Assembly: GCA_039801225.1 (NCBI GenBank)
Contig: JBDRUH010000007.1
Coordinates: 1-36,416, forward strand
DNA length: 36,416 bases
From: a candidate division WOR-3 bacterium
GTDB lineage: Bacteria; Hydrothermota; Tepidihabitantia; Tepidihabitantales; Tepidihabitantaceae
Direction: 5' to 3'
The notes under the pieces were generated by a model, which was given only the letters and a program-made list of their open reading frames with translations, searched no databases and had not been told where the DNA came from. Below are positions 4,068-23,212 of the stretch, piece after piece; position 1 is the stretch's first letter; every line of letters begins with the position of its first letter. The translations under genes were made by a program, and so were the position numbers.

Positions 4068-5828
4068 CTATGGCACTATCACCTTCTCCGTTCGTCCCTT
4101 TTGATTGACGACAAAATAGACGCCACTTTTTTTCGGACACCAAGATGCCTGACCATTACGCTCGGGTAAAAGACGCTTTTGGATTCTACCCAGCCCATCA
4201 ACAATTATTGCGCAACTCCCGGATATTGACAGTTCAATATCCTGCCCTTTAATCACCATCCTCCCATTCTTGGGCTTCATTCCCTGACTCTTTTCCTGAA
4301 CACCAGGCGGGCTCTGGAAGATGGTTATAATCGTATCAATCGGAACCTGGGTAACGGTGCGGCTGCCGTCGGGCCAGCGGATTACCACCGAGTCAATCGC
4401 TGAGTGCTGACCCAGCCCAAAGTGTTGGCGGGGAACGAAAAGTGAGCCGTAGTGCCCACCCTGATTGTGCAGCACCTCCCTAGTTACCCGTAAACTATCA
4501 GCCCAGACATCTATCCTTGCGCCGATTGCCGAGGTATTCGGATAATCACCTTTCAAATCCAGTTCCAGCCAGTGATTGGAGTTGCCGGAGTTGACCCAGA
4601 ATTCGTAGTAAGTGGTAGAACCGTCAGAACGCGCCCAGAACAAATCCAAAGCGCCATCGTTATTAAAGTCCACCCAGATGCCATAACTGACGCACTGCCT
4701 TGGACCCAATCCCAACGAATCGCTAACATCGGTGAAGTGACAGTTGCCCTCGTTGCGGTAAAGGTAAAAATCCGGGCGCGGGGCACCATAAAGGTTGGTC
4801 CAGAACAGGTCAACATCACCATCATTATCAAAATCACCGCAGGAGGGGCTGGAACCAATTTCGGTGTTCTTCATTCCTGAGCCTTGAAAGTGGCAGGTGA
4901 AATCCCAGTTCGGTGGTCCGTTATTTATCCAGAGATGTCCGGTGGAATCGCCGGGATAGCCCGGATGATGGGTAATCGGCGTAAATATGTCCAGATGCCC
5001 GTCATTATTGTAGTCGGCTATCGCGGCACCGATGTTGTGCCCGTAGTAGCCGCCGATATAAAGCCCCTGGACACCCTTTTCCTCCGCCACATCAATGAAA
5101 ATCCCCTCACCATTGTTCTGCCATAAAAGGTTGGGCAAAAGCCGGTAAACCGAAACAAACACATCCACATCACCGTCCTCATCAAAGTCAAAAAGACTGA
5201 CCCCGCGGGAACAGTACCAGGGAATAGAAACACCGGAAATATCAGAATAATCAATGAACTCACCGCCATTACTAAAAAGAAAAAGATAGTCCGGCTTGCC
5301 CTGAGCCGAATTGGGGGGCCACTCATAACTTGTGAGGAAGAAGTCCAAGAAGCCATCACCATTGCAATCAAACCAGGCCGGGTCAACCAGGTCGCGGTCA
5401 AAAATTGTATCCAGTCTGCCCAGACCCAATGACTCGGAAACATTCCGCAAGGTCCAGAAGGGCGGACCCTCATTTTTGTATATTAATACGAAATTGGTAT
5501 CATAGGTGTTCCCACCAAATCTCCGGTTGGTAACCATATCCGGGTAGCCATCACCATTAAAGTCTGCCCAGTCAACCAGTTCACTTTCAAAAATTCGGGT
5601 TGAATCCAGCCGGATAAAATGCGCCCCGGTGCCATCATTTAAGTAGACGACATTGGAAAAGAAGTCCAAAAAGCCATCCTGGTTATAGTCAACGAACGAA
5701 TTGCTCGCCGAACTGAATATGGTGTCAATGCCCAGTTCCGCAGGCGTGCGCCTGGTAAATGTAACCTGGGCGGTTGCGGTCGCCATCGCCGCCCCAAGCA
5801 TTAAAAACAGATTTATTATTTTTGCCAT
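4068..5828 (-). CDS. secreted FG-GAP repeat / ASPIC-UnbV (CRTAC1-like) protein with T9SS-like C-terminal tail
   Basis: Signal peptide; about 7 DxNxDGxxD repeats; NHWLELDLKG...AIGARI...HFGLG...IRWPDG; tail IVDGLGR...SGVYFV...TEKVIV. Confidence 0.85.
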   Translation of the reverse strand: MAKIINLFLMLGAAMATATAQVTFTRRTPAELGIDTIFSSASNSFVDYNQDGFLDFFSNVVYLNDGTGAHFIRLDSTRIFESELVDWADFNGDGYPDMVTNRRFGGNTYDTNFVLIYKNEGPPFWTLRNVSESLGLGRLDTIFDRDLVDPAWFDCNGDGFLDFFLTSYEWPPNSAQGKPDYLFLFSNGGEFIDYSDISGVSIPWYCSRGVSLFDFDEDGDVDVFVSVYRLLPNLLWQNNGEGIFIDVAEEKGVQGLYIGGYYGHNIGAAIADYNNDGHLDIFTPITHHPGYPGDSTGHLWINNGPPNWDFTCHFQGSGMKNTEIGSSPSCGDFDNDGDVDLFWTNLYGAPRPDFYLYRNEGNCHFTDVSDSLGLGPRQCVSYGIWVDFNNDGALDLFWARSDGSTTYYEFWVNSGNSNHWLELDLKGDYPNTSAIGARIDVWADSLRVTREVLHNQGGHYGSLFVPRQHFGLGQHSAIDSVVIRWPDGSRTVTQVPIDTIITIFQSPPGVQEKSQGMKPKNGRMVIKGQDIELSISGSCAIIVDGLGRIQKRLLPERNGQASWCPKKSGVYFVVNQKGRTEKVIVP

Positions 5829-5960
5829 CGTCCACTCCTTTTCTTCTTCTCTATATTATCTCCCCTTACCCAATCTGTCAACTAGCCACTATTTTATTTT
5901 TCCCCCGCTAGTAGGGTAATTCATAAATTGCCCCTAAGGTGATGGGATAGCTTTGCTCTA

Positions 5961-6195
5961 GCCTGCCCCGAGCCGACGCCAATAAATCCTAATTTTAAAG
6001 CACTAAATCCTAAACAATTTCTAATACCAAAGCCTGCCCCGAGCCCACAGAAAGGCCTGCCCCGAGCGACCAGACCCGAATCGGGCACTTCGGTCGGAAT
6101 GACGGGGCGAGGGGTCCCAATTATCAAAACATTTTGGATTTAGAACATTGGAGTTTTGAATTTGTTTAGAATTTAGGATTTCGGATTTAGAGTTT
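5961..6195. repeat. composite intergenic repeat: 3 x GCCTGCCCCGAGC, a GC-rich nested hairpin and inverted heptamer-like arrays
   Basis: GCCTGCCCCGAGC at 5961, 6032 and 6055; ctaaatcctaaacaatttctaa (6003-6024) is an imperfect inverted repeat of tttgaatttgtttagaatttag (about 6155-6176). Confidence 0.75.
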
Positions 6196-6244
6196 CTCCT
6201 TGAATTGAACACGGGGTGTTGACCAGAGAATAAAGTTCAATAAG

Positions 6245-7228
6245 ATGAAAAGAAAGATGGCGCCGGAAGATGTTTTCCCCGAAGTCTTAAAAAGACTTTT
6301 GGGGGAGGTTAGTAACTCTTTGCACAGAATCGTGCCCGTTTCCGGGCGGGAGAGGCGAAGCAAATTTATCAATTTTGAAGGTGGTGGTGTTGAACAGCAA
6401 TTTAACCGCCATCTCCTGTTGCACCATTGTGCCAATTATGCGGCAGCGCTCTCAATCTTTATCTCGGAAAAAAGCGGCCGGCGGATTCTGGAATTGGGCT
6501 GCGGCAGCGGTCTTCTATCCAGTGCCTTTGCCCGACTATTGCCCGAGGGCTATAGTCTCCTTGCTACCGATTATTCCTCCCAGATGATTGAATACGCCCG
6601 GTCAATCTGGCAGAAACAGTCAGGGTCCGCTCTGCGATTCGAGTGCTTGAACGCCAGAGATATTTCGGCAAATCTCCTTAAGGAGTTTGATGGGGTAATG
6701 TTCTTGGAGGTGCTTGAACACCTGCTACCCGAAGATGCGACCAGTTTACTTTACCGGCTCCACCACGGTCTTAAACCCGGCGGAATAGTGGTCATAAGCA
6801 CCCTTGACCGCTCGCCTTTTAAAAGACCCTTCTCCGGTTATATCCACCATCGGGTTGAGTATTCTTATGAGAAACTGCGAGATTTCCTATCCTCTCACGA
6901 GAACAATCCTTTTGCGACCTTTCAAGTCTATCGGTTGGTATCACCTGAAATCACTAAGAAGGCGGTGCACAGTGAAAATTGGGGCGGCTATCTATTCAAC
7001 CGGCTGGTCGGGATTCTCGAAATGATGAGCCGGCGCAATTCCGGTCTTGAGGTTACAAAGAAGAGAGTGGCAAATCTATTTTACCGGTTCTTCAACCCCT
7101 TATCCTCCAAGATGGGCTCCTATCCCCTCTCCTGCTTAGAAGACATCCAGTTTGTCACGACAGAGCCAGAAAGTTATAACCAGAATTCCTTCAGCCTTAT
7201 TGCCGTCCTTAAAAAGGCTACTGAGTAG
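6245..7228 (+). CDS. class I SAM-dependent methyltransferase
   Basis: ILELGCGSG motif I, DYSSQMIEYAR, FDGVMFLEVLEHL, LKPGGIVVIST. Confidence 0.85.
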   Translation: MKRKMAPEDVFPEVLKRLLGEVSNSLHRIVPVSGRERRSKFINFEGGGVEQQFNRHLLLHHCANYAAALSIFISEKSGRRILELGCGSGLLSSAFARLLPEGYSLLATDYSSQMIEYARSIWQKQSGSALRFECLNARDISANLLKEFDGVMFLEVLEHLLPEDATSLLYRLHHGLKPGGIVVISTLDRSPFKRPFSGYIHHRVEYSYEKLRDFLSSHENNPFATFQVYRLVSPEITKKAVHSENWGGYLFNRLVGILEMMSRRNSGLEVTKKRVANLFYRFFNPLSSKMGSYPLSCLEDIQFVTTEPESYNQNSFSLIAVLKKATE

Positions 7229-7820
7229 AAGCGATTATATATCTTATCTTTACCGGTGGTTTTGCCTGCCCCAGTTTCTCAAGGACATCCATCCCTTCAA
7301 CAATTTTCCCGATTACGGTGTATTTACCGTCAAGTTGCGGTAGCGGCTGGAGGCAGAAGTAGAACTGACTACCCGAAGACTCCTTGTTGGGGTTGACCTG
7401 GTCCGGCAGGCGCGCCATCGCCATTGACCCCTTCTCGTGCTTGCGCTTTATCTCCGCCGGCACAGTGTAACCCGGACCACCGGTGCCATCGCCCTTCGGG
7501 TCGCCACCCTGGACAACAAATCCGGGCTCAATCCTATGAAATGTCAATCCATTGTAAAACCCTTTAATCGCTAAGTTGACAACATTCTTCACATTCCGTG
7601 GGGCATCCTGAGGGAACATCTCCACCTTCATCTTACCGAAATCCTCCACACTGATGTTCAGAAAAAGTTTCTCGGGCAGGTTCATTCCTGCTATCGTATC
7701 GGTGAGCAACCCGGGTATGTTTATCTCCTCTTCGGTTATCGGTTTTGTCTTTACTTCCTTCTTTGCCCCGCAGTTGAAAATCAAGAGGGCAATTACCAAA
7801 AACGAAACGATTCTTAACAT
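7218..7820 (-). CDS. cyclophilin-type peptidyl-prolyl isomerase, probable lipoprotein
   Basis: FYNGLTFHRIEPGFVVQGGDP, GSMAMAR, SGSQFY, LDGKYTVIG; N-terminal LLIFNC lipoprotein-type signal. Confidence 0.92.
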   Translation of the reverse strand: MLRIVSFLVIALLIFNCGAKKEVKTKPITEEEINIPGLLTDTIAGMNLPEKLFLNISVEDFGKMKVEMFPQDAPRNVKNVVNLAIKGFYNGLTFHRIEPGFVVQGGDPKGDGTGGPGYTVPAEIKRKHEKGSMAMARLPDQVNPNKESSGSQFYFCLQPLPQLDGKYTVIGKIVEGMDVLEKLGQAKPPVKIRYIIASTQ

Positions 7821-10241: not shown

Positions 10242-11786
10242 ATGATTAAAAGAATCCTTTTTTGTTTGTCTTTCTTATCAGCGACGGTGTTCGCGGGGAA
10301 ACCGCCTATTATCTACTGGGATTTAGAAGAGCGACCAGAAGAGCCACCCTTTCCGGTTCTTTCTTTGAGAGTCAAAGCCCTGGGTGAGGAGTTCTTAGGA
10401 ATTGTTGCCGATTTGAGAAGCGATATCCTCTTAAACCCATCGCTTATTCCTTTGTTAGAAGAGAATGAAGTGGCTATTACCTTTTTGCCCAATATGCCCG
10501 GTCTCTATTACCGGCAAAATCTAATCGCCTCCTCGGTCTTTCTCCCGAAATTATTTATTCGCCAACTGGGTTTTGGGGCTCACAATCAATTCACTTCTTT
10601 TAGTTACGGTTACCAGTCCTTTTATTACGATTATTACTTAAGAGACGAAGACTTCAGCTCTTTTCAGCAGTCGCTTTTTTTACCCTGGTCTCTTTCCCCT
10701 TTATTAAAACTCGCCCTCTCTTACACATTTACCAGAAGTCCCCTTGAAATAGAGGGCGGATATGAGAGTGAAAATTACGAAATAGAAAATAAAGATACCG
10801 TTAATATCAGGAGGTATACCTACGGTTCGCAACTTGCGGACATCCTCTCTTCTCATCAATTTGGTTTGGGAACGACCTTTAACTTTTCCACCCACCTTTT
10901 ACAGTTGACATTCTCTTATAAAAAAGGGAAAAACGAAATTGACTATCACCAAAATAGCGAGGATTACCTCCTCCATACCGATTCTTCTTTCTATACTTAT
11001 GACAGTTCTTATCACTATCTCTTTTGGAGAAGGGTGGATTACCTAACCACCGGCGGTGAAGTTGATGATTCCAAAGAGGGTAATGAGATAAAATTCACCG
11101 GTCGCTTTAGTAAAGCGGTTGAGGGCGAGAAGCGTTTTAACGCCCTCTTGAACCTGGCTAAATCATCGGCAAATTTAAAGGGAAGGGAAAGAGACTCCTC
11201 TTACAATTTCCACAAGGATTCTGTTTATGAGCGGTGGCAGAACTATCCCAATCCTGAGTCAACTGATATTGACACCCGCACCTTAACCGAATATTTCACC
11301 AAGAACCTCAACATCAGCGGCAGGACAGAAAAGATAACCGGGGTTTTCGGTTTGGGTTATGAGTATCCGATTAACAAATCTCTTAAGGGTTTTTGGGGTT
11401 TAAAAACGGTTTGGGCAATGGAAAAGGATAGTGTTCAAAAAGAGGGTTTAGAAATCTTCACTGATAGTCTGACCGATTCCAATCTCGTTTCCAACTATCA
11501 AGTGAATAATATTAATACCCTCACAATGGCTATCCCGTTGGGATTGGAATATAAAATCTCCTCTCTGATATTGAGAGGCGGAATTACCCCGAAGTTTACT
11601 TATCAGAAGAGTATATTTAAAGACGAGCGCAAGACCTATCCGGATTTAGCCAGTTATGTCCTTGATATAGCATATTCCTGGGGAATCACTTGGCGGGTTT
11701 TAGAGAGGCTCTCCTTTGATGCCTACAACTCGGGGAATCTCTTCACTTTAAAAGATTGGCTTATTCAGTTCTCTTATTGGTTCTAA
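10242..11786 (+). CDS. hypothetical outer-membrane beta-barrel protein
   Basis: AGGAGG SD, signal peptide ending VFA, alternating aromatic strands, C-terminal IQFSYWF. Confidence 0.65.
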   Translation: MIKRILFCLSFLSATVFAGKPPIIYWDLEERPEEPPFPVLSLRVKALGEEFLGIVADLRSDILLNPSLIPLLEENEVAITFLPNMPGLYYRQNLIASSVFLPKLFIRQLGFGAHNQFTSFSYGYQSFYYDYYLRDEDFSSFQQSLFLPWSLSPLLKLALSYTFTRSPLEIEGGYESENYEIENKDTVNIRRYTYGSQLADILSSHQFGLGTTFNFSTHLLQLTFSYKKGKNEIDYHQNSEDYLLHTDSSFYTYDSSYHYLFWRRVDYLTTGGEVDDSKEGNEIKFTGRFSKAVEGEKRFNALLNLAKSSANLKGRERDSSYNFHKDSVYERWQNYPNPESTDIDTRTLTEYFTKNLNISGRTEKITGVFGLGYEYPINKSLKGFWGLKTVWAMEKDSVQKEGLEIFTDSLTDSNLVSNYQVNNINTLTMAIPLGLEYKISSLILRGGITPKFTYQKSIFKDERKTYPDLASYVLDIAYSWGITWRVLERLSFDAYNSGNLFTLKDWLIQFSYWF

Positions 11787-12288
11787 ACACACTAAACGGT
11801 TGTAACTTTATTAAATGGGTTGCTTCGGGCTCTATCCCAAACTTCTGAGAAGGCTAAGTTTAGTTATATATAAACAAAATTCCGATGGCTAAAATTGAGT
11901 TAAGTTTCGTAATTAAATAACTTAATTAGAAGACCGGTTTATCTGGGGGGCTGTCCACTCCAGCACTAGGGTGGTAAAACCCTTTCCTGACTCGGTTTTG
12001 GACCTGTTGCTAAGTTTGATGTTAAAATCACAGTTAAATTGAAAGGTAAAATCAAATGGCGGGATGGCTGTAAAAATTGGTCTAAAAAAGTTTTCAGGAG
12101 TGGCTTTTAATTTAATCCTAAGTTAAAGCCCAAAAAGAAGGCTAAAAAGCGCCTGAAGATCTGATTTCAAAAAAGTCCTAAAAAGGAAGATTCAGCCGAT
12201 TTTAACAACCAAATTAAAATTAAAAGATATCAAATGAGTTTAAGAAACAAAGCAGACAAACAAGAAGGTCAAAGAAATCTGCGGCTAT

Positions 12289-12347
12289 GGGATTACTTCG
12301 TCGCTTTTGCTCATCGCCCAAAAACGGGCACGATTCTGTGCAATGAC
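12289..12347. repeat. REP-like palindromic element with an internal hairpin insertion
   Basis: GGGATTACTTCGTCGCTTTTGCTCATCGC...GCAATGAC resembles recalled GAGATTGCTTCG...CTCGCAATGAC intergenic repeats; inner gccc-aaaaac-gggc hairpin. Confidence 0.45.
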
Positions 12348-12371
12348 CATCATTAACAGCGGTAGTTTTTC

Positions 12372-12399
12372 TTGACTGAAATTGATTGGAATTTATGAT
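12372..12399 (+). promoter_or_regulatory. sigma70 promoter of the selenoprotein operon, probably leaderless
   Basis: TTGACT 12372-12377, N16, TATGAT 12394-12399, then 6 nt to ATG 12406. Confidence 0.55.
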
Positions 12400-12405
12400 T
12401 GAGCG

Positions 12406-13200
12406 ATGTTACGCAGGTTTATATTTTGGGGAATTTTCGCCGGGCTGGTCGCGCTTTGTTGTTCGGAAGCACCCCAGATTGTCCGTGAAGCAAACCGGCT
12501 GGTGCTGGTTGAACTTTTTTCTACACCCTTAGATGAATGACCTTACTGCGCGTCCGCGGCGCGGGCATTGGAGAGTTTGAAGGCGGTTTATGGCGATTCA
12601 ATGGCTTTTGTGATTTATTACTCAGGTGAAGCCCATCCCGAGCTTTCATCGCCGGCGGGCAAAGCCCGGAATGAGTGGTATGGCGTTGGTGTGGAGGCAC
12701 CGCTGGCTTTCTTCAATGGAACATTACGCTCACCGCATATTATGATTCCGGACTCATTTTATCCGGTTTATCGGGATATGATTGACGCCGCCCGGTCGCG
12801 GAAAACCTGCCTGGAGATGGCACTTGACAGCTCCAGCACAACCATTGACTCGGCAACACTGCGGCTTCTAGTCAGGCTCACGCCAACCGACTCGTTAATT
12901 GACACAATAACGAGCCTGAGGCTGGTGGCGATTGTATTTGAGGACAGCATCCCCTATTACTCTTCTTTCGTTGGCGACACCACTTATGCACCAATGGCGG
13001 TGCGTAAGGTAATCGGTGACAGTTTCGGCATCCCCGTAACTTTAAAATTTGGCCGGGATTTTGATACCCTGCTGACAACCGGCGTCAGTGGTTATAATGT
13101 TAACCGGCTCGGGGTTGCTGTTTCGGTTCAGGATTTTGTCACCAAGGAGGTGTGGCAAAGTGTGGTTAAATGGCGAATTAAAAGAGAGGAGGCAAGATGA
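12406..13200 (+). CDS. putative selenoprotein: exported Omp28-like/thioredoxin-fold protein with UPYC motif (Sec45, 264 aa)
   Basis: MLRRFIFWGIFAGLVALCCSEAPQIVREANRLVLVELFSTPLDE-TGA(12538-12540)-PYCASAARALESLK continues in frame into ORF 12568-13200. VLVELFS...xxC is a thioredoxin-fold active site. Signal peptide present; hairpin after the TGA. Confidence 0.82.
12552..12566 (+). promoter_or_regulatory. candidate bacterial SECIS element 1
   Basis: GUCCG-CGGCG-CGGGC stem-loop; loop starts 17 nt after the UGA with G in position 2. An alternative pairing CGCGUC/GGCGCG is also possible. Confidence 0.5.
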
Positions 13201-13748
13201 AGAGACTCTTTTTCATTATTATAGCCTTGATGTTGGTTTTGAGTGCCGTGAGCGCTGAGGAGAAAGAGGAGCCCAAGTATGAAAAGGCACCGGACTTTAC
13301 TCTATCGGACATTGAAGGCAATGAAGTAACCCTGTCAGAACTGTTGAAAGTGGGACCGGTATATATGGAGTGCTGGGATTTGTCCTGTGTCAACTGTATT
13401 AACGAACTGGATGCCCTTTTACCGGTTTATGACTCGCTGAAGGAAAGAGGTTTACAGATTATCGCCCTTTCGGTGGATAAGCCTTCGGATGCGGCGCGAG
13501 TGAAGGCTTTTGTTAAAGCAAAGAAGTGGCCATATATTGTTCTCTTGGACCAACAGCAAAAGGTGAAGAAGGCGTATAACATCATTATCAAACCTACCGC
13601 GGTGTTGGTTAATATGAAAGGTGAGATTGTCTATACCCATATCGGGTATAAGAAGGGCGATGAGAAAAAGATTGCTCTTGAGATGAGCAAGTGGCTGCCC
13701 GAGGAGGAAGATGAGCCAACCGGCGAGGAGGGTGAGAAACAGAAATGA
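13197..13748 (+). CDS. exported TlpA/ResA-like thiol-disulfide oxidoreductase
   Basis: Signal peptide, APDFTLSDIEG, WDLSCVNC (CxxC), IIALSVD, PTAVLVNMKGEIVY; ATGA overlap with the upstream gene. Confidence 0.88.
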   Translation: MKRLFFIIIALMLVLSAVSAEEKEEPKYEKAPDFTLSDIEGNEVTLSELLKVGPVYMECWDLSCVNCINELDALLPVYDSLKERGLQIIALSVDKPSDAARVKAFVKAKKWPYIVLLDQQQKVKKAYNIIIKPTAVLVNMKGEIVYTHIGYKKGDEKKIALEMSKWLPEEEDEPTGEEGEKQK

Positions 13749-13755
13749 GGTACCT

Positions 13756-15207
13756 TTGACTTTTCTCCTTCTTGCTACGCTATTTGGCACCAATTTTACC
13801 ATTCAAGGGAGTAACCGGGCAGAGTTCTGGGGTTATCAGGAGGAGTGGGCAACAAGCGTTGAAAATAAACTGGATTTGACCGCCCGTTACGGCGACTTTG
13901 AAGGTGAGTTCGGGCTACTTTTTTTTGAACCCTCAAAGCACTCACCGGCGGTGCGCAAACCAATCCGGCTTTTGGACTATTCAGTTGGCTATAACCCCAA
14001 GGAACTTGAACTCCGGGTGGGTAGGTTTTTTGCTACATTCGGTCAGGGGCTATCGCTACGCACCTATTCGGATGACGACTTTCGCCATTACAAGAGCCTG
14101 CACGGACTTTTGGGCAGGTTTCGGCTGCCGTTACGCAGTGAAATAACCCTCTTGGGTGGTAGGCTGCGAGATATATTTTTCCAGGAGAATACCTATAAAA
14201 TAATGAACGAACTGGACACTGCCGACCAGGTTTTGGGCGTAGACCTGACCACCCAGCCAATGAGATTTTTGAACTTTGGCGGTAGATATGTTCGGATTAA
14301 TCGGGAGGCGGACCCGAGTGCCAAGGCGTTTACCGAACTTTTTGGTGGCGGTGCCGGTCTAAATTTTGGACCAGCAGCAATTTCCGGCGAGTTATGCTGG
14401 CGTCTCGGAACAAAACCCGGTATTGGCGGTAGGGAAAAAGGTATTGGTGGCGTGGCAAATGTCAGCCTGACCCTTGCCGGTTTTTCCATCATCGGTCAGT
14501 ATGTTGATTACACCCGGCTCGGCTTTCCTCCTGAAGTTTATCACTACAATGACCCGCCTACTCCTATTAAGTCTGGTGTGGCGATAAATCGCGGGGTTGA
14601 CGAAAGAGGTTTTGGCATTCAGGTCTCCGGAATGCCGACCGGTAGCCTTTATCTTGAGGCGGAGTTAGGTAGACTGTTTGTCCATGATGATACCAGCGCT
14701 GGGGTTTTAGAGGGGGAGTTTAAGGGCAAATATACCTTAAGCAGCAACTTGACTGTTGAGACAAAGTTCAATTCTATGCTACAGAAAAATATTGAGTCAG
14801 GAACCTATCGCCGGATAACCAACCGCCCTGCTCTTTTGTTTAATTATTCACTTGACAACCACACCTTTGCCTTTGAGGCGGAACTGGGCTGGGTGGAGGA
14901 GCGTCCAACCGACACCAGTAAGGGGGCGGTATGGCGATATCACGAACCGAACATCTCTTTCAGTTACGGCTACAGTGAGAAATGGTTTTGGACAGTCTCT
15001 TGGCAGGGGGTTGATAAGGATTCATTGAAAAGGTATGACAATCAGAAATCCTGGCCAATGTTTGAAACGGTCTGGAACATAAATGAGCGGAATGTTTTGC
15101 GAGTCCGGGTGGGCGCGGAAAAGGGGGGCTATACCTGTTCGGGCGGGGTGTGCCGTTACGAGGCTCCCTTTCGGGGTGTAAAGTTGCAGTTAATCAGCCG
15201 AATATAA
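13756..15207 (+). CDS. outer-membrane beta-barrel with C-terminal CxGGVC motif (DUF6029-like)
   Basis: ELRVGRFFATFGQGLSLR and C-terminal GGYTCSGGVCRYEAPFRG; probable start TTG 13756 after GAGG. Confidence 0.7.
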   Translation: MTFLLLATLFGTNFTIQGSNRAEFWGYQEEWATSVENKLDLTARYGDFEGEFGLLFFEPSKHSPAVRKPIRLLDYSVGYNPKELELRVGRFFATFGQGLSLRTYSDDDFRHYKSLHGLLGRFRLPLRSEITLLGGRLRDIFFQENTYKIMNELDTADQVLGVDLTTQPMRFLNFGGRYVRINREADPSAKAFTELFGGGAGLNFGPAAISGELCWRLGTKPGIGGREKGIGGVANVSLTLAGFSIIGQYVDYTRLGFPPEVYHYNDPPTPIKSGVAINRGVDERGFGIQVSGMPTGSLYLEAELGRLFVHDDTSAGVLEGEFKGKYTLSSNLTVETKFNSMLQKNIESGTYRRITNRPALLFNYSLDNHTFAFEAELGWVEERPTDTSKGAVWRYHEPNISFSYGYSEKWFWTVSWQGVDKDSLKRYDNQKSWPMFETVWNINERNVLRVRVGAEKGGYTCSGGVCRYEAPFRGVKLQLISRI

Positions 15208-15210
15208 GTG

Positions 15211-15345
15211 ATGCGTAAGGTATTAGTTATTTTACTGGTGCTCTTGGGCGTGGTAGCGATTGCGTTCGGGATAAAATTGGGAATGCTATTGGTGATTCGT
15301 GGGTTTGCCGGACAGATATGACTATCCTGTATGGGTCTCGTGTAG
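15211..15345 (+). CDS. putative small membrane selenoprotein with ULSC motif (Sec37, 44 aa; CD1871A-like CxxC peptide)
   Basis: MRKVLVILLVLLGVVAIAFGIKLGMLLVIRGFAGQI-TGA(15319-15321)-LSCMGLV-TAG. Fills the gap between the OM barrel and the 4Fe-4S gene and matches the recalled I-C-L-x-C-I/M-G pattern. Confidence 0.8.
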
Positions 15346-15350
15346 ACCAT
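15331..15350 (+). promoter_or_regulatory. candidate bacterial SECIS element 2
   Basis: AUGGGUCU-CGUGU-AGACCAU, 7 bp with one bulged G; loop starts 18 nt after the UGA with G in position 2. Confidence 0.6.
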
Positions 15351-15355
15351 TAAAA

Positions 15356-16642
15356 ATGCCGAAAAGAAGAGTTGCCCCTTATCGCATCGGTCAGATAATT
15401 GGGACGGTCGTTCTCAACGCCTATATCCTTGCCTATATTCAAGGCAAAATTATCTACTCCGGGTTTCTGAAGAGCATCCCGGAGCCGGTTCTTAACTGTT
15501 ATGGTGGTCCGCTATCGGTCTTTGCCTGCCCGCTTGGCTCATTTCAGCAGATTTTTGGTCAGCAGGGGCTGGCATTTTATTTAAGAATACCATGGGTAAT
15601 CATCGGTCTTGTGGTGATTATCGGTGCGTTCGTCGGCAGGACCCCTTGTGCCTGGGTCTGTCCTTTTGGACTATGGCAGGATTTGCTTTACAAAATAAAG
15701 GTTGGTCCCCAGGCAAAGGGCAAGCGCTGGCTCACCTTTTCGGTTATCGGGCTAATCGGTTTGGTGGTGGTAGCGCTCTTAGTGGTTTTTGTCAAAGTCA
15801 ACCTCTTTAAAGCACTTCTCTTCGGCTGGCTACCGTTTATCGTCCTCTGTCTTTTTGGGGCGCTCAAAGGGAAAATGAATTTACCCGGACGCTGGTTTTT
15901 AAGCGGGACGCTGGTCGGAATCGGATTAGGACTGTTTGTGGGGTGGAAGCACGACATTAACCTCGGCATAGCCAGCGGAGTTGTAGCGTTGACTTTGTTT
16001 AGCCTTGCCAGCAGTAAAGTAACACTTCTACTTGCAGTTCCCACTGGTTTTGTAATATCACTTTTCGGTAGAGGCGTGCAACTTGGACCCTTTGCCGGTG
16101 CTGAACTGGGAATGCTTTTTGCCATTTTTGCTTTCCTGGTGGTAATGGTGTTTGACCAGTGGCTGAAAATCTCTTTGCCGGCAACCGGCTTGAAATATCT
16201 CTTTCTGCTCTTGGTGGCGGGTTTAGTCGCATTCTTTACCGGTGAACCTTGGTTCTGTAAACTTTGCCCCCAGGGCACATTAGAGGCGGGAATTCCTTTA
16301 GTTCTCTGGGACCCGGTCCAGGGTCTGCGGGCACTTGTCTCCTGGCTTTTTTATCTCAAAGTAGGAATTCTCCTTTTTGTCATCTGGGCGGCAATGCTTA
16401 TTAAACGACCCTTCTGTCGGATAGTCTGCCCGATTGGTGCAGTATACTCAATCTTTAACCGGGTCAGCCTTTTACGGCTGAAACTGAACCGGGAAAGTTG
16501 CACCCGATGCCAGGTCTGTCGCCGGGTTTGTCCGACCGATATTGAGCCTTATGAAGAACCAAACCAGACCGACTGTATCCGCTGTTTTGAGTGTGTCTGG
16601 AAATGCCCCCGTTCCAGTTTGAAAATAACGCTTGGCGGATAG
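15356..16642 (+). CDS. polytopic membrane 4Fe-4S binding protein (NapH/MauN/RdxA-like)
   Basis: FACPLG, GRTPCAWVCPFG, WFCKLCPQG, RPFCRIVCPIG and two ferredoxin motifs (CTRCQVCRRVCP, CIRCFECVWKCP); start moved to ATG 15356. Confidence 0.88.
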   Translation: MPKRRVAPYRIGQIIGTVVLNAYILAYIQGKIIYSGFLKSIPEPVLNCYGGPLSVFACPLGSFQQIFGQQGLAFYLRIPWVIIGLVVIIGAFVGRTPCAWVCPFGLWQDLLYKIKVGPQAKGKRWLTFSVIGLIGLVVVALLVVFVKVNLFKALLFGWLPFIVLCLFGALKGKMNLPGRWFLSGTLVGIGLGLFVGWKHDINLGIASGVVALTLFSLASSKVTLLLAVPTGFVISLFGRGVQLGPFAGAELGMLFAIFAFLVVMVFDQWLKISLPATGLKYLFLLLVAGLVAFFTGEPWFCKLCPQGTLEAGIPLVLWDPVQGLRALVSWLFYLKVGILLFVIWAAMLIKRPFCRIVCPIGAVYSIFNRVSLLRLKLNRESCTRCQVCRRVCPTDIEPYEEPNQTDCIRCFECVWKCPRSSLKITLGG

Positions 16643-16684: not shown

Positions 16685-17527
16685 ATGCGACGACCGAATT
16701 GGCTTAAGACCCGCTTACCAACCGGCGAGGAGTTTAACCGGGTAAATGAGATTCTTAATCGCTACCGCCTGAAAACGGTCTGCAGTTCTGCCCGCTGTCC
16801 CAATCTTGCCGAATGCTGGAACTCAGGCACCGCGACAATAATGATTCTTGGTAATATCTGTACCCGTCACTGCCGATTCTGCGCGGTAAAAACCGGCAAT
16901 CCTGGCGGTAAAGTTGAGCCGGATGAGCCAGACCGGGTGGCGAAAGCGGTTGGGGAATTAAAGATAATGTATCTGGTATTAACCTCGGTTGACCGGGATG
17001 ACCTTATTGACCTTGGTTCGGATGCTTTTGCCCAAACCGTCCGAGCGGTAAAGGAAGCAAATCCACAGGTAAAAGTGGAGGTGCTTACCCCGGACTTTGG
17101 CGCAAAACCGAACCTGATAAAATTGCTCGTTGATGCTGGTCCTGATGTATGGGCGCATAATATTGAGACAGTAGAGCGGTTGGCACCATTTGTCCGGGAC
17201 CCTCGGGCGAGCTATTCACTCTCCCTCACACTTCTTAAGACGGTGAAGAGCATTTCGCCGACAACAGTTACAAAAAGCGGGCTGATGCTCGGACTGGGTG
17301 AAACCCGGGATGAGATAATTGCCACATTGAATGACCTGCGCAGTACCGGCTGCGATATTGTTACTATCGGACAGTATCTCCAGCCAAAAAGAAGTTGCCT
17401 GCCGGTTGCCCGGTACTGGACTGAAGCGGAGTTTGCTGAACTGGCACGGGAGGGAGAAAAGATGGGTTTCCGAAAGGTTTTTGCCGGGCCGATGGTGCGA
17501 AGTTCCTACAGAGCCGGAGAGATGTAA
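16685..17527 (+). CDS. lipA: lipoyl synthase
   Basis: TVCSSARCPNLAECW, CTRHCRFC, TSVDRDDL, HNIETVERL, TIGQYLQP, VRSSYRA. Confidence 0.97.
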   Translation: MRRPNWLKTRLPTGEEFNRVNEILNRYRLKTVCSSARCPNLAECWNSGTATIMILGNICTRHCRFCAVKTGNPGGKVEPDEPDRVAKAVGELKIMYLVLTSVDRDDLIDLGSDAFAQTVRAVKEANPQVKVEVLTPDFGAKPNLIKLLVDAGPDVWAHNIETVERLAPFVRDPRASYSLSLTLLKTVKSISPTTVTKSGLMLGLGETRDEIIATLNDLRSTGCDIVTIGQYLQPKRSCLPVARYWTEAEFAELAREGEKMGFRKVFAGPMVRSSYRAGEM

Positions 17528-18920: not shown

Positions 18921-19646
18921 TTAGCTGTCCTCCGGTTCAAACTGGTCTTTACTTGCCCCACAAACCGGACACACCCAGTCATCAGGCAAGTTCTCAAAAG
19001 ATGTCCCCGGCGGAATATCATGTTCCGGGTCGCCCTCCAATGGGTCATAAACATAACCGCACACTGTGCAAACATAGCGTGTCATATTATTGCCCCTTTC
19101 TTGCGGCTTAATTTCAATTTTATCTTCTTTCTCCTCCCGGTAACTCGGTGCCCCTCTACCGGTCTTACCCTTTTTAACTAGATGATAATAAGCGTAGGTC
19201 AACGGTTCGGCATCCTTTATTACCCGGGCAGCAACTACCTCAGCAACAAACAGGTCGTGGGTTACGCAATCAACTATTTCCTTTACCCTACCTTCAATCA
19301 ATGATACAGTATAATCAGTTATCAGCGGAACACCGGTAATACCAGTTTCATAACTTAATCCCTCAAATTTGTTAAAATCACGCCCTGAGCGGAATCCGAA
19401 TCGGCCAATGAACTCCAGTGGCGTATCCCTCTCCAAAACCGAAATCGCCAAGACACCACTTTTCCGGACAAACTCATTGGTCAGACTGTTCTTATTGATA
19501 GTAACTGAAACCAGTGTCGGATTAAGCGCAACTTGAACCACTGTGTTCACCACCAGTCCATTCAACCGTTCAGCGTCCCGGCTGGTCACAACATAAACCC
19601 CGTAACTAAATTTGTCAAGAGCACTTTGATTGACCTGATTTTCCAT
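18921..19646 (-). CDS. flavin reductase-rubredoxin fusion (high-molecular-weight rubredoxin)
   Basis: SYGVYVVTS...[12 protein letters not shown]...HDLFVAEV, plus C-terminal [12 protein letters not shown]...WVCPVCG. Confidence 0.9.
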
Positions 19647-20841
19647 TAATTTTTCCTTTCAGAACTCTTGCCACCTTTCTCCCTAACTGCTGACAGGCAT
19701 CCAGTGCATTCTGGTCCGGGACATATTTTACCTTATATGGCTCGGCAACCATCTCCATTCCCATACCTTTAAGTTCCTCAGCGATAATCCTTGGTGCCTC
19801 ACCGCTCCAGCCATAGGAACCGAATGCCATTGCCAGTTTGCCTTTCGGCTTTAACCCTTTCATATATGTCAGCATATCCGCCACGGTGGGAAAAAGACCG
19901 TTATTTAATGTTGGTGAACCGATAACCACTGCACCGGCATCAAGAATTTCCATCATAACATCACTCCGGTCATTTGCCCGTAACTTCATCACCTTTACTT
20001 CCACCCCTTCAAGGGCAACCCCGTCAGCAATCGCCCGTGCCATCTTATCGGTGCCTTGCCACATCGTATCATAAACAATCACTACTTTAGCCTTCGGCTC
20101 TTGTCTCGCCCACTCCTCATACCAAGACACTATTGTCCCCGGCCCTTTCCGCCATATTGGACCGTGATCCGGAGCAATGGTCTCAATGGGTATATTGAGT
20201 GCCTTAATTCTATCTAAGAGTTTAAGGATGAGTGGTGCATAGGGCAAAAGGATATTGGCAAAATATTTTGCCCCTTCCTGTCTGAGTAAGCTAGGATCCA
20301 ATTCATCGGCAAATCGTTCACCTGTTGCCAGGTGCATTCCAAAACCGTCCTGAGAGAAAAGAATTTTCTCCTCTATTAGATAAGAAACCATACTGTCGGG
20401 CCAGTGAAGCATCCGTGTCTCTAAGAATTTGAGATTGAGATTGCCGAGGTTGAGCGTATCCCCGTCTTTTAAGCCAGTAATCTCATAATCAAGATGAAAA
20501 TGTTCTTTCAGCGCCTTTACCCCCATCACTGAGGCAAATACCTTTTCCGGTTTTACCACATTAATGATTTCCGGCAATGCGCCCGAATGGTCCATCTCTG
20601 CATGATTGGAAATGATATAATCAATATCTTCTGGTTTAATAACCGTGGCGATGCGGGCAAGGAGTTCGTCCTTAAACGATGTTTTAACCGTGTCAATTAG
20701 GGTTATCTTATCCGCCAGAACCAGATAGGCATTATATGTTGTCCCCTGGTTGGTAGAATAGCCGTGAAAGTCCCGAACGGTCCAGTCAATAGCACCTACC
20801 CAGTAGACATTCTCAGTCAACCGAACCGCATTGAATGCCAT
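19615..20841 (-). CDS. fprA: flavodiiron protein (A-type flavoprotein)
   Basis: [28 protein letters not shown], flavodoxin domain GSPTLN and [11 protein letters not shown]. Confidence 0.95.
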
Positions 20842-20868
20842 CGCTCACATCCTTGCGATCAAGCCGAA

Positions 20869-21414
20869 CTATTGACTCGGACTGGTTCCCTGAGCGTAAA
20901 GGGTAGCCAGTTCTGGTGGCAAGACAAATGTCCGGCTCCCCAGTTCCCGATCCAGCATCAATATGCCCCGTCCATCATTACCTATCAATCGCAGTTGCTG
21001 GGCAATCTTGGCAGTGCTGTCTTCCTCTTCAACCTGTTCATCAACAAACCACTGCAGGAGAGAATTGGAGGCGTAGTCAGCCTCTTCCTGGGCGAGTTTT
21101 ACCAGTTCGTTGATTTTACTGGTGATGAACCGCTCATGCTCATAAGCCGCCTCAAAAGCTTGAAGCGGCGATTCCCATTTCGTCTCCAGCACGCTCAAAG
21201 GTAACAATCTCACTGTGCCACCGCGCTCAATAATATGTTTATAAAACCGCATTGCATGGGTTACCTCTTCCTGAACCTGTGCCCGCATCCATCTCCCCAT
21301 ACCCTCAAACCCGGTATTATCAAAGTACGCCGCCATCGCCAGATAAAGATAAGCCGATTCCAGTTCGTGTTTTATCTGCTCATTAAATGCATTCTCAATT
21401 TTCGGGGAAATCAT
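20869..21414 (-). CDS. ftnA: non-heme ferritin
   Basis: NEQIKHELESAYLYLAMAAYF, EEVTHAM, HERFIT, LQWFVDEQVEEE; start moved to ATG 21414. Confidence 0.92.
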   Translation of the reverse strand: MISPKIENAFNEQIKHELESAYLYLAMAAYFDNTGFEGMGRWMRAQVQEEVTHAMRFYKHIIERGGTVRLLPLSVLETKWESPLQAFEAAYEHERFITSKINELVKLAQEEADYASNSLLQWFVDEQVEEEDSTAKIAQQLRLIGNDGRGILMLDRELGSRTFVLPPELATLYAQGTSPSQ

Positions 21415-21416
21415 CC

Positions 21417-21794
21417 TCAAACCCCTTTCCACAACCCGTGAATATTACAGTATTCACGGGCATAGACATTTTCTGCCTGAATTGAGAAAAAAGCCTCAGG
21501 TGCCTGCCCTGGGCTGAGAAACTCTCGGTAAGCTCGTCCATCCGCTACCAGTTCAATCCATTCAATGTAATGCTTTTCCTCCATCGGGTGGGGAACACCG
21601 CCCACCTTGACCTTAAACCCATTAGCCATCTTCTCAATTACCGGCACATGCTTTTCTTTACCGACATCCGCTGTCTTTTCTTCCATAAGTTTCATCGGCT
21701 GACCGCAACATACTAATTGACCAGCGCCTGGATGAATCACTTCAACGATATTGCCACAGATTTCACACTTATAAATTTCCAGCCTTTTGGTCAT
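21417..21794 (-). CDS. dfx: desulfoferrodoxin (superoxide reductase)
   Basis: [12 protein letters not shown]...[31 protein letters not shown]. Confidence 0.96.
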
Positions 21795-22115
21795 TTATAA
21801 CTCCTTTCCTTTCATCAACCGGCTATCAATCCCGGTAAATCCGCATTCCGGGATATAGCAGGTTACATCAACAAACTTACAATGCTGTCCGCAAGATGGA
21901 CAGCGTTCTGGTGGGCTCATTGCCTGAAGAACATAATGACAATTTGCGCAACTCCAGTAAGGGGCATTCACTGGAACTGCTTTATCTTCTTTGGGTTTTT
22001 CTGCCCCTTCCTGCATCAATTTGTTACAGCATACCAGTCTCCCCCCACCTTTATGAACCAATGTAACAATCTGACCGCAAACCTGGCAACTGAATATTGG
22101 CGATTCTTTGCCCAT
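21795..22115 (-). CDS. small two-domain metal-binding protein: desulforedoxin-like + rubredoxin-like
   Basis: CQVCGQ...LVCC, then WSCANC...[21 protein letters not shown]. Confidence 0.75.
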
Positions 22116-22124
22116 TCCTACTCC

Positions 22125-22643
22125 TTAACTTAATTTCCTTACCACTTCCAGAACTGCTGCATAATCAGGCTCCTTCCCCGCCTCTTTTACCAACTGGATG
22201 TAGCGAACAATACCTTCCCGGTCTATCACAAAAACTGCTCGGGCGAGAAGTCGCAACTCTTTTATCAACACGCCGTATGCTAAACCAAAACTACCATCAC
22301 GGTGGTCTGATGCGGTAATTACCCGGTTAACACCTGCTGCTCCGCACCACCTTTTCTGGGCAAAGGGCAAATCCATACTGACCACTAAAATTACCACATC
22401 TTCGCCTAAATCTGCCGCCTCTTGATTGAATCTTCTCGTTTCAATATCGCAGACCGGCGTGTCCAGCGAAGGAACCGAAAGGAGCACTAGCACCTTACCC
22501 TTAAACTGTTCACTGATTACTGGCTGGAGGTCGTTGCCGACGAGCAGAAAATTTGGTGCTTTTTCGCCAATCTTCGGGAGTGAACCGAGCAGGGTAACCT
22601 GATTGCCATTAACCGTTACTTCACCTTTTCGTTCATCCATCAC
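22125..22643 (-). CDS. tpx: thiol peroxidase (atypical 2-Cys peroxiredoxin)
   Basis: [44 protein letters not shown]. Confidence 0.95.
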
Positions 22644-23212
22644 CAGTTCTCTCCTAAGATTTCAAAATACCCTTGGGGATGGGCACAGGAGGGGCAAACC
22701 TCGGGTGCCTCGGTTCCCTCATGAAGATAACCACAGTTGATGCACCGCCAGACAACCGTCTTGTCTCGACGAAATACCTGACCGTCTTCAATATTTGCCT
22801 TCAAAGCGAGATATCTCTTTTCATGCTGTTTCTCTGCCACGGCAATAGCCCGGAATATCGCCGCTATTTCGGAAAAGCCTTCCTCCTCGGCAATTTTTGC
22901 GAACTCGGGATACATTTGCGTCCACTCGTAATTTTCCCCCGCCGCCGCTGCTTTCAAATTGTCAACTGTTGAGCCAATCACCCCGGCTGGAAATGAAGCC
23001 TTAATCTCCACCTCGCCACCTTCAAGGAGTTTGAAAAGCCGCTTGGCGTGCTCCTTTTCCTGATTTGCTGTCTCCTCAAAGATTAGCGCCATCTGGATAT
23101 ACCCTTCATCCCGCGCCTTACTGGCAAAATAGGTATATCTATTTCTTGCCTGGGATTCACCGGCAAATGCCGTGAGGATATTTTTTTCTGTTCTACTGCC
23201 TTTTAACTGCAT
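22640..23212 (-). CDS. rbr: rubrerythrin
   Basis: [45 protein letters not shown]...CPSCAHP. Confidence 0.96.

Follow-up and report, generated by a model that had tools for sequence, protein, structure and literature searches.

A 36,416-nucleotide stretch of DNA from a candidate division WOR-3 bacterium (assembly GCA_039801225.1, contig JBDRUH010000007.1, positions 1 to 36,416; called the window below) contains a five-gene operon, g1 to g5 (Table 1). The genes encode a thioredoxin-like lipoprotein (g1), an exported TlpA-like protein (g2), an outer-membrane barrel (g3), a 44-amino-acid membrane peptide (g4), and an iron-sulfur (Fe-S) membrane protein (g5). Two of them, g1 and g4, contain an in-frame TGA, and both TGAs are almost certainly selenocysteine (Sec) codons, as judged by comparison with related genomes. 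We propose that the operon encodes a thiol/selenol relay of the cell envelope, in which g5 would supply Fe-S-driven reductant to envelope thioredoxins. We give this reading a probability of about 60%. The direction of flow, the electron donor, and the final substrate presented below are those that we infer.

An earlier note on this DNA, made from its sequence alone, had described five packed genes, each carrying a Cys/Sec motif. The positions and motifs were verified, and the motif cysteines and Sec residues were kept in 16/16 orthologous operons. The gene order g1-g2-g3-g4-g5 was retained in all 15 related loci that were fetched, and the five genes are thus inherited as a set. This conservation is well beyond chance.

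The earlier note took the two TGAs for Sec codons. The genome (1.5 Mb, 72 contigs, 89% complete) was searched for the Sec machinery. It encodes selA, selB, and two selD genes, all above curated cut-offs, and one tRNA-SeC was found with Aragorn. One selD adjoins selB (G000 C5:25243-26151 and C5:26205-28073) and is itself a selenoprotein gene, because it contains an in-frame TGA. Since g1 and g2 both end at TGA, this codon is also an ordinary stop in this genome, and a genome-wide reassignment of TGA was rejected for the same reason.

The g1 protein was searched against 41 genomes of the same family and order, and 39 of them gave a match. All 16 matches at E ≤ 8.5e-47 have an in-frame TGA, and the weaker paralogues are mixed, with zero or one TGA. 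We fetched 15 orthologous loci and five paralogue loci for comparison. The window and all 15 orthologous loci have the TGA at one and the same codon. It follows a strand of the form (L/V)-(V/A/S/L)-E-(L/V/I/T)-F and precedes x-(Y/F)-C, so that a UxxC site is present in 16/16. The residues around it have diverged to 40-67% identity while the TGA codon is unchanged in 16/16. The five Cys paralogues have C-P-Y-C or C-V-Y-C at this site. Locus L031 was excluded from alignment A3; its g1 orthologue (G002:C5, about 4526-5318) is frameshifted about 207 codons in, by an assembly error or as a recent pseudogene.

The g4 peptide was found in 11 of the 15 fetched loci by tblastn and in all 15 by direct reading. 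Its tail, I-U-L-[S/G]-C-M-G-L-[V/G]-stop, contains the TGA in 16/16 operons. Past the TGA, codons vary synonymously and the encoded residues are conserved. In three other families (f3, f4, and f14), Cys (codon TGY, giving CLSC) replaces the Sec in the same g3-peptide-g5 context, and CLSC is also found at this site in a second type of the peptide. The TGAs of both genes are thus conserved and align to Cys in paralogues or distant orthologues.

Sec insertion sequence (SECIS)-like hairpins were found past both UGAs. In the g1 hairpin, 97.3% of the cells were paired versus 79.6% in shuffles, and none of 500 shuffles reached the observed value; slid controls gave 30-57%. Compensatory changes were present at five of its eight pairs, and the pairing was kept though the amino acids encoded by the stem vary. 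The g4 hairpin starts 14-15 nucleotides past the UGA. Its cells were 94.8% paired versus 84.5% in shuffles (0/500 reached the observed value), with slid controls at 26-60%. One pair, between the third position of a Gly codon and a base outside the coding region, occurs as GC in 6, CG in 5, and UA in 5 cases. The covariation scores of both hairpins were likewise not reached by any of 500 shuffles. Minimum free energy folding of the window's own post-UGA stretches alone gave no difference from shuffles, and the hairpins became clear only through comparison across orthologues. The two hidden selenoproteins of the earlier note are therefore supported by the Sec machinery, the 16/16 conservation of both TGAs, the Cys homologues, and the covarying hairpins. 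None of the refuting outcomes named in that note (no Sec machinery, TGAs unconserved or aligned to residues other than Cys, no conserved synteny) was observed.

Public records were looked up for both genes. The g1 gene is split into pieces of 44 and 210 amino acids, and g4 is on record only as a 36-amino-acid truncation, from a different contig. A search for homologous proteins with the g4 peptide returned only this truncation. The statement that standard annotation truncates or misses these genes was therefore correct for the records looked up.

The relation of the operon to known gene groups was analyzed in other phyla. The earlier note had stated that Omp28/TlpA/DUF6029-like genes co-occur in Bacteroidota. 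DUF6029 was found in two of the five Bacteroidota genomes tried, and both loci, from Bacteroidales, read TlpA-DUF6029-Omp28. Their Omp28 proteins score above the cut-off and carry CxxC, and the only two cysteines of the barrel form CxGGVC. It had also stated that CD1871A-like peptides precede a 4Fe-4S protein of this type in anaerobes. In a sample of 150 Clostridia genomes, 28 contain a CD1871A peptide above the curated cut-off. In 28/28 of these loci the peptide is directly followed by a NapH-like gene, and in 23/28 the 1.5-kb flanks include a TlpA-like gene. The WOR-3 operon thus combines a Bacteroidales-type trio with a Clostridia-type trio, and TlpA is the element common to both, as the idea of two joined modules had it.

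DsbD_TM, the domain of the CcdA/DsbD reductant carriers, was detected in 64 of the 150 Clostridia genomes. Of the genomes with the peptide, 6/28 had this domain, versus 58/122 of those lacking the peptide (odds ratio 0.30; Fisher p 0.012, with related genomes not being independent). Because Clostridia with the peptide have CcdA/DsbD less often, Fe-S-driven reductant supply to envelope thioredoxins is the reading that we consider best.

The tail pattern was further searched with one genome per species, giving 73 loci. Forty of them have a transmembrane (TM)-peptide open reading frame (ORF), and 33 were judged chance or unrelated. Nine of the 40 are outside WOR-3-type operons (labeled Lachnospiraceae, Eubacterium, Ammonifex, Bacillota, Phoenicibacter, Anaerolineae, and Actinomycetota, among others), and a g5 homologue lies beside the peptide in 9/9 (E 1e-26 to 1e-36). 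Further neighbors are an AhpC-TSA/Redoxin lipoprotein in five, an exported rhodanese in two, and none recognizable in two. Four of these non-WOR-3 peptides score 42-53 bits on the NCBIfam model NF040920 (CD1871A_fam), above its cut-off. The WOR-3 peptides are tied to the CD1871A family by the tail and neighbors that they share with such peptides.

Several of these loci have features of their own. Sec peptide tails were observed beside NapH-like genes in L083 (Actinomycetota label; I-I-I-U-L-E-C-M-G-L-V) and L121 (Anaerolineae label; L-L-L-U-F-S-C-M-G-L-G). The downstream partner in Anaerolineae is an exported rhodanese-domain protein. In L078 (1013-1612), a TlpA-like lipoprotein with an in-frame TGA (F-F-S-S-G-U-S-G-C) is encoded next to a CD1871A-type peptide and a NapH-like gene; public ORF calling has split this gene in two.

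The g4 peptide itself is distantly related to the CD1871A CXXC peptides. Like them, it has about 45 amino acids, one TM helix, a C-terminal CxxC-type tail (C-x-x-C-x-G-x-G/V in CD1871A peptides), and a NapH-like gene directly downstream. A difference is that its first Cys is Sec, and that the pair is part of a diderm operon that also encodes a barrel and a lipoprotein. The window's copy matched NF040920 over its full length with 12.6 bits (E 0.098; cut-off 32). Among 13 further related peptides, eight matched at E ≤ 10 and none exceeded 32 bits; the best had 24.0 bits (E 2.7e-5).

The DNA pattern of the peptide tail was found in 51 of 272 genomes of the phylum, in 42 of the 43 genomes of the window's family, and in none of the reversed controls. 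Two types of peptide were distinguished. Type A lies between g3 and g5. Its codon is TGA in families f1 and f2; families f3, f4, and f14 have Cys and the operon order g2-g3-peptide-g5. Type B has no g5 nearby; it adjoins two paired HBP35-like genes and has TGA in some genera and Cys in others. In the type B module, one HBP35/Omp28-like gene of the pair encodes about 600 amino acids with a C-terminus of the type IX secretion system type. Loci of this module are L039 (970-3711), L041 (about 4500-7290, minus strand), L054, L059, L068, and L072.

The g5 protein matched PF12801 (Fer4_5) with 42.3 bits against a cut-off of 22. It was below the cut-off of the NapH/MauN model TIGR02163 (55.3 vs 213 bits), with only its C-terminal part matching. 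It has four membrane-proximal Cys-pair motifs and two CxxCxxCxxxCP motifs, and all 16 of these cysteines are conserved in 16/16. It stands at the core of a very large family, the "4Fe-4S binding proteins" with lengths of about 290 amino acids, for which 5534 representatives were found at E ≤ 0.001. Close g5 homologues carry the name candidate division WOR-3. Compared with these relatives, g5 carries an insertion of about 150 amino acids with extra TM helices. The cluster names of ten such relatives were uninformative. Many g5 orthologues (L030, L036, L037, and P0048-type) have about 535 amino acids, because about 110 additional residues at the N-terminus form further TM helices. Hydropathy and charge counts point to eight helices with both termini inside. 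In this putative topology, motifs 2 and 4 (C98, C102, C354, and C358) would face inward, and motifs 1 and 3 (C48, C58, C301, and C304) would face outward.

In the accessible text of Meheust et al. (2021, PMC8238504), NapH-like proteins are described as modular carriers of electrons across the membrane that have flavinylated partners, and thioredoxin-like partners are grouped with DsbD, not with NapH-like proteins. Like the NapH/NosR/PceC modules, g5 is polytopic, with CxxxCP-type motifs and a C-terminal 2x[4Fe-4S] domain. It differs from them in having no ApbE partner, in its partner being a CxxC/UxxC peptide with thioredoxins, and in the TM insertion. No FMN-binding extracytosolic partner, as in NosR/PceC, was found among the five genes or their neighbors.

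The pairing of the peptide with the 4Fe-4S protein, raised in the earlier note, was examined by a complex prediction without alignments. For g5 and the 36-amino-acid pre-UGA part of the peptide, which was the only part used, the score was 0.59 versus 0.00 for the best control; passes at or below 0.60 are more often wrong than right unless the guess is already likely. Agreement between the runs covered at least 66% of contacts, and the partner had a pLDDT (predicted local distance difference test) of at least 65. Among solved complexes, 51 of 78 attain the mark for this score, compared with 2 of 108 mismatched pairs. The model weakly suggests that g4 may bind g5, and the pairing stood to that extent, for the part of the peptide before the Sec.

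The 3D structure of g1 was modeled with AlphaFold 2 (pLDDT 89.6). It consists of a thioredoxin-like domain followed by a β-sandwich. The top Foldseek match was HBP35 of P. gingivalis (5y1a, E 3.4e-11, TMq 0.70); 2axo was next and the Omp28 domain 2r2c was third. The lipobox residue Cys19 is invariant in 20/20 aligned sequences, and because of this invariant Cys after the signal sequence g1 was assigned as a lipoprotein. Pfam Omp28 was not matched at E 0.01. The g1 protein shares with Omp28/HBP35 the fold, the N-terminal lipobox Cys, and a CxxC-type site in the same place, and with Bacteroidales Omp28 the TlpA and DUF6029 neighbors. A difference is that it forms a distant, lineage-specific branch with Sec in all 16 orthologues. 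A Sec-bearing Omp28 relative is already modeled in NCBIfam (NF045500). The two cysteines of HBP35 are required for its in vitro thioredoxin activity, according to the accessible part of its description (PMC2907840).

The g2 protein matched the Pfam families AhpC-TSA (75.5 bits) and Redoxin (63.6 bits), with cut-offs of about 26, and was below the NCBIfam cut-off of the ResA subfamily (84.8 vs 170). Both CxxC cysteines are kept in 16/16, and the hydrophobic N-terminus agrees with export, as in TlpA/ResA-like proteins. No cytochrome c assembly gene scored above its cut-off in this 89%-complete genome, so a role of g2 in cytochrome c maturation is unlikely and was rejected.

The g3 protein matched PF19494 (DUF6029) with 62.8 bits against a cut-off of 27, and its AlphaFold 2 model is a large β-barrel (pLDDT 69.5). 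Both cysteines of its pair are conserved in 16/16, and the two Bacteroidales DUF6029 proteins share its CxGGVC motif.

We propose the following relay. The cytoplasmic 2x[4Fe-4S] domain of g5 would accept electrons from a low-potential donor, most likely ferredoxin. The electrons would traverse g5 via Fe-S sites of the four Cys-pair motifs, two at the inner face and two at the outer face. The outer-face sites would then reduce the selenenylsulfide of the U-L-S-C tail of the peptide, and the reduced peptide would pass electrons to periplasmic TlpA (g2) by thiol-disulfide exchange. TlpA would in turn reduce the U-x-x-C lipoprotein g1, which would act at or with the DUF6029 barrel g3. Our best guess for the final substrate is oxidized cysteines or disulfides of envelope or exported proteins. 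Such a relay would do the job of CcdA/DsbD with another membrane machine, and a selenol reductase associated with the outer membrane of a strict anaerobe would thereby stay reduced.

The proposed relay can be compared with known systems. Like CcdA/DsbD with TlpA/ResA/CcmG, the operon ends in an exported TlpA/ResA-like CxxC thioredoxin, with presumed export of reducing equivalents. Unlike in that system, a NapH-like Fe-S protein and a 44-amino-acid U/CxxC peptide make up the membrane part, and selenium is at two nodes. In ferredoxin:thioredoxin reductase and heterodisulfide reductase, a [4Fe-4S] cluster adjacent to a redox-active Cys pair allows disulfides to be reduced with single electrons. 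The reduction of the peptide by g5 would be similar in mechanism only; there is no sequence relation, and the proposed site is the outer face of a membrane protein and a separate peptide. In architecture, the operon is analogous to MtrCAB, with a periplasmic carrier, a large barrel, and a lipoprotein. It differs in having no hemes and in its thiol/selenol carriers, and the match of the barrel to MtrB (6r2q_B, rank 12, TMq 0.34) was no better than to TonB-dependent receptors.

Several observations weigh against this relay. Its membrane steps presuppose that the g5 Cys pairs bind Fe-S clusters, and the topology used for them is based solely on hydropathy and charge counts. The published topology of NapH has the CX3CP motifs on the cytoplasmic side. 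The peptide fails the curated cut-off of the CD1871A family that it resembles, and it is not strictly tied to the 4Fe-4S gene, because the type B peptide has no neighboring g5. The anti-correlation of peptide and CcdA in Clostridia is modest and uncorrected for phylogeny. For the outer-membrane end, g1 was below the NCBIfam cut-offs for Omp28 (NF033782, 21.4 vs 150 bits) and for the Omp28-related selenoprotein (NF045500, 21.9 vs 200 bits). The C-x-G-G-V-C hairpin of g3 was modeled at low confidence (pLDDT below 50), and the Foldseek matches of the barrel were generic large barrels only (BtuB, PfeA, OprC, and MtrB). No DsbD_TM gene is in the operon, but the genome has a CcdA/DsbD_TM homologue elsewhere (C13, 40.8 bits), and the canonical route may coexist. 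The DsbD/CcdA-independent path of the earlier note is thus not forced by the gene content of this organism.

One alternative is that electrons flow in reverse. The peptide and the NapH-like protein would then re-oxidize the thioredoxin-fold proteins of the envelope and pass electrons to menaquinone or a cytoplasmic acceptor, as a DsbB/VKOR-like oxidase that forms disulfides in an anaerobe. The operon has no dehydrogenase or donor gene, and the conserved Cys pairs of the DUF6029 barrel and of the HBP35-like proteins could be structural disulfides. However, TlpA/ResA-type proteins act as reductants in the characterized cases, and quinone reduction needs no cytoplasmic 2x[4Fe-4S] domain. The Clostridia anti-correlation with CcdA/DsbD also fits redundancy with a reducing, not an oxidizing, route. 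NapH proper is a quinol-linked subunit, as stated in the accessible text of PMC8238504, which favors reverse flow; thioredoxin folds with UxxC typically belong to reductases and peroxidases in the accessible text of a 2026 review (PMC13188914), which speaks against it. We consider an oxidase unlikely.

A second alternative keeps the relay and changes its end. The g1 lipoprotein at the barrel would be a small-molecule reductase for external or periplasmic sulfur, selenium, or metal(loid) species or for heme-bound species, with respiration, detoxification, or uptake as the envisaged roles. The barrel and lipoprotein suggest access of a substrate across the outer membrane, and the exported rhodanese that replaces TlpA in the two Anaerolineae loci points to sulfane-sulfur chemistry. 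The closest solved fold, HBP35, binds hemin and is required under hemin limitation (PMC2907840, accessible part), and the sequencing runs that contain this DNA are labeled hot springs metagenome. Yet no recognizable substrate-binding or metal site is present in g1, and Pfam and NCBIfam scans found no transporter or terminal-reductase family in the operon. Outside this phylum, the partners are mostly plain TlpA-like lipoproteins. A small-molecule end of the relay is improbable in our view.

Last, the TGAs could be true stops or sequencing artifacts, leaving g1 a broken gene, g4 a 36-amino-acid peptide, and the operon mere neighbors, as the public gene calls and the folding of the window's own copies would allow; this is extremely improbable and already contradicted by the comparative data, in which the TGA keeps its codon in 16/16 genomes despite the diverged flanks, the residues after it are conserved, Cys stands at the site in homologues, the hairpins covary, and the Sec machinery is complete.

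The features of the operon are listed in Table 1. The g3 gene may start at the ATG at 13711 or at an alternative TTG at 13756, which would leave a 7-nucleotide gap after g2. The gaps between g3 and g4 and between g4 and g5 are 3 and 10 nucleotides. The promoter-like sequence upstream of g1 is a candidate only, because the region contains seven such sites versus 6.0 expected; the promoter and terminator scans of the region were at chance level. Rfam gave zero matches in the window or around the operon. Among the sequencing runs that contain this DNA, no RNA run is listed.

Table 1. Positions of the operon genes, their Sec codons and hairpins, and adjoining features in the window
Feature	Position	Strand	Description
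Promoter-like TTGACT-16-TATGAT	12372-12399	+	Candidate; just 5' of g1; 10/12 consensus matches
g1	12406-13200	+	264-amino-acid lipoprotein; thioredoxin-like domain and β-sandwich (HBP35/Omp28 fold); U45-P-Y-C48
g1 Sec codon TGA	12538-12540	+	U45 within V-E-L-F-S-T-P-L-D-E-U-P-Y-C
g1 SECIS-like hairpin	12550-12568	+	8-bp stem, 3-nucleotide loop; begins 12 nucleotides past UGA
g2	13197-13748	+	Exported TlpA/ResA-like thiol-disulfide oxidoreductase; C-V-N-C; 4-nucleotide overlap with g1
g3	13711-15207	+	DUF6029 outer-membrane β-barrel; C-terminal C-S-G-G-V-C hairpin
g4	15211-15345	+	44-amino-acid peptide; basic N-terminus, one TM helix, tail Q-I-U-L-S-C-M-G-L-V
g4 Sec codon TGA	15319-15321	+	U37 in C-terminal tail
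g4 SECIS-like hairpin	15333-15349	+	5-6 bp, loop CGUGU; spans TAG stop, 3' arm past ORF
g5	15356-16642	+	428-amino-acid polytopic NapH-like protein; C-terminal 2x[4Fe-4S] domain
lipA (lipoyl synthase)	16685-17527	+	Pfam Radical_SAM and LIAS_N; membership in the system uncertain

Directly 3' of g5, all 16/16 close operons and both loci of family f3 have lipA in the same orientation (the window, L024-L038, L186, and L188). It is missing in two loci of f4 and one of f14, and a major facilitator superfamily transporter is next in several operons. Upstream of g1, about 620 nucleotides (11787-12405) contain no ORF of at least 60 amino acids, only short ones of 30-40 amino acids, and no Rfam match. 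They are preceded by a gene (10242-11786) for a 514-amino-acid exported protein with a C-terminal Y-W-F and no Pfam match, which may be a barrel. An oxygen-defense run on the minus strand (18921-23212) encodes a flavin reductase-rubredoxin, a flavodiiron-type protein, a ferritin, a desulfoferrodoxin, a small rubredoxin-like protein, a peroxiredoxin, and a rubrerythrin. A 2175-amino-acid ORF without a Pfam match is located at 29572-36099.

The literature was searched for precedents. No paper was found on CD1871A, on an Omp28/HBP35 selenoprotein, or on a selenoprotein linked with TlpA and a 4Fe-4S protein, supplements aside. A 2022 preprint on eight selenoprotein families does not mention CD1871, NapH, Omp28, or TlpA, and the deep-Sep paper does not mention Omp28, lipoprotein, 4Fe-4S, or WOR-3. 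The 2026 selenoproteome review lists UxxC thiol:disulfide proteins and a UGC TlpA family, and its accessible text, supplements aside, contains no mention of Omp28, HBP35, WOR-3, or "transmembrane" (PMC13188914). The parts of the operon have known kin, because NCBIfam already models an "Omp28-related selenoprotein" and the CD1871A CXXC family. No description of the proposed route from iron-sulfur protein to envelope thioredoxin was found in the literature searched.

A broader reading is possible but rather doubtful. A NapH-like protein and a peptide with a CxxC/UxxC tail might constitute a second, Fe-S-based transmembrane reductant route, independent of DsbD/CcdA and spread across five or more phyla and candidate phyla (WOR-3, Bacillota, Actinomycetota, Chloroflexota, and a single locus labeled Planctomycetia). 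The WOR-3 form, with selenium at two nodes, might then lead via the DUF6029 barrel to an outer-membrane or surface selenoprotein, as a thiol/selenol counterpart of MtrCAB.

The analysis brings to light two very probable selenoproteins that are split or cut short in gene calling. One of them is a 44-amino-acid membrane peptide, and relatives of it with Cys are common among anaerobes. The analysis also offers a candidate for how anaerobes without CcdA/DsbD may keep exported TlpA-like thioredoxins reduced, and it gives a partner and a likely task to three functionally uncharacterized families: the CD1871A peptides, the "4Fe-4S binding proteins" of about 290 amino acids, and DUF6029. Should the step from Fe-S cluster to selenenylsulfide prove real, it would be a new kind of transmembrane redox coupling.

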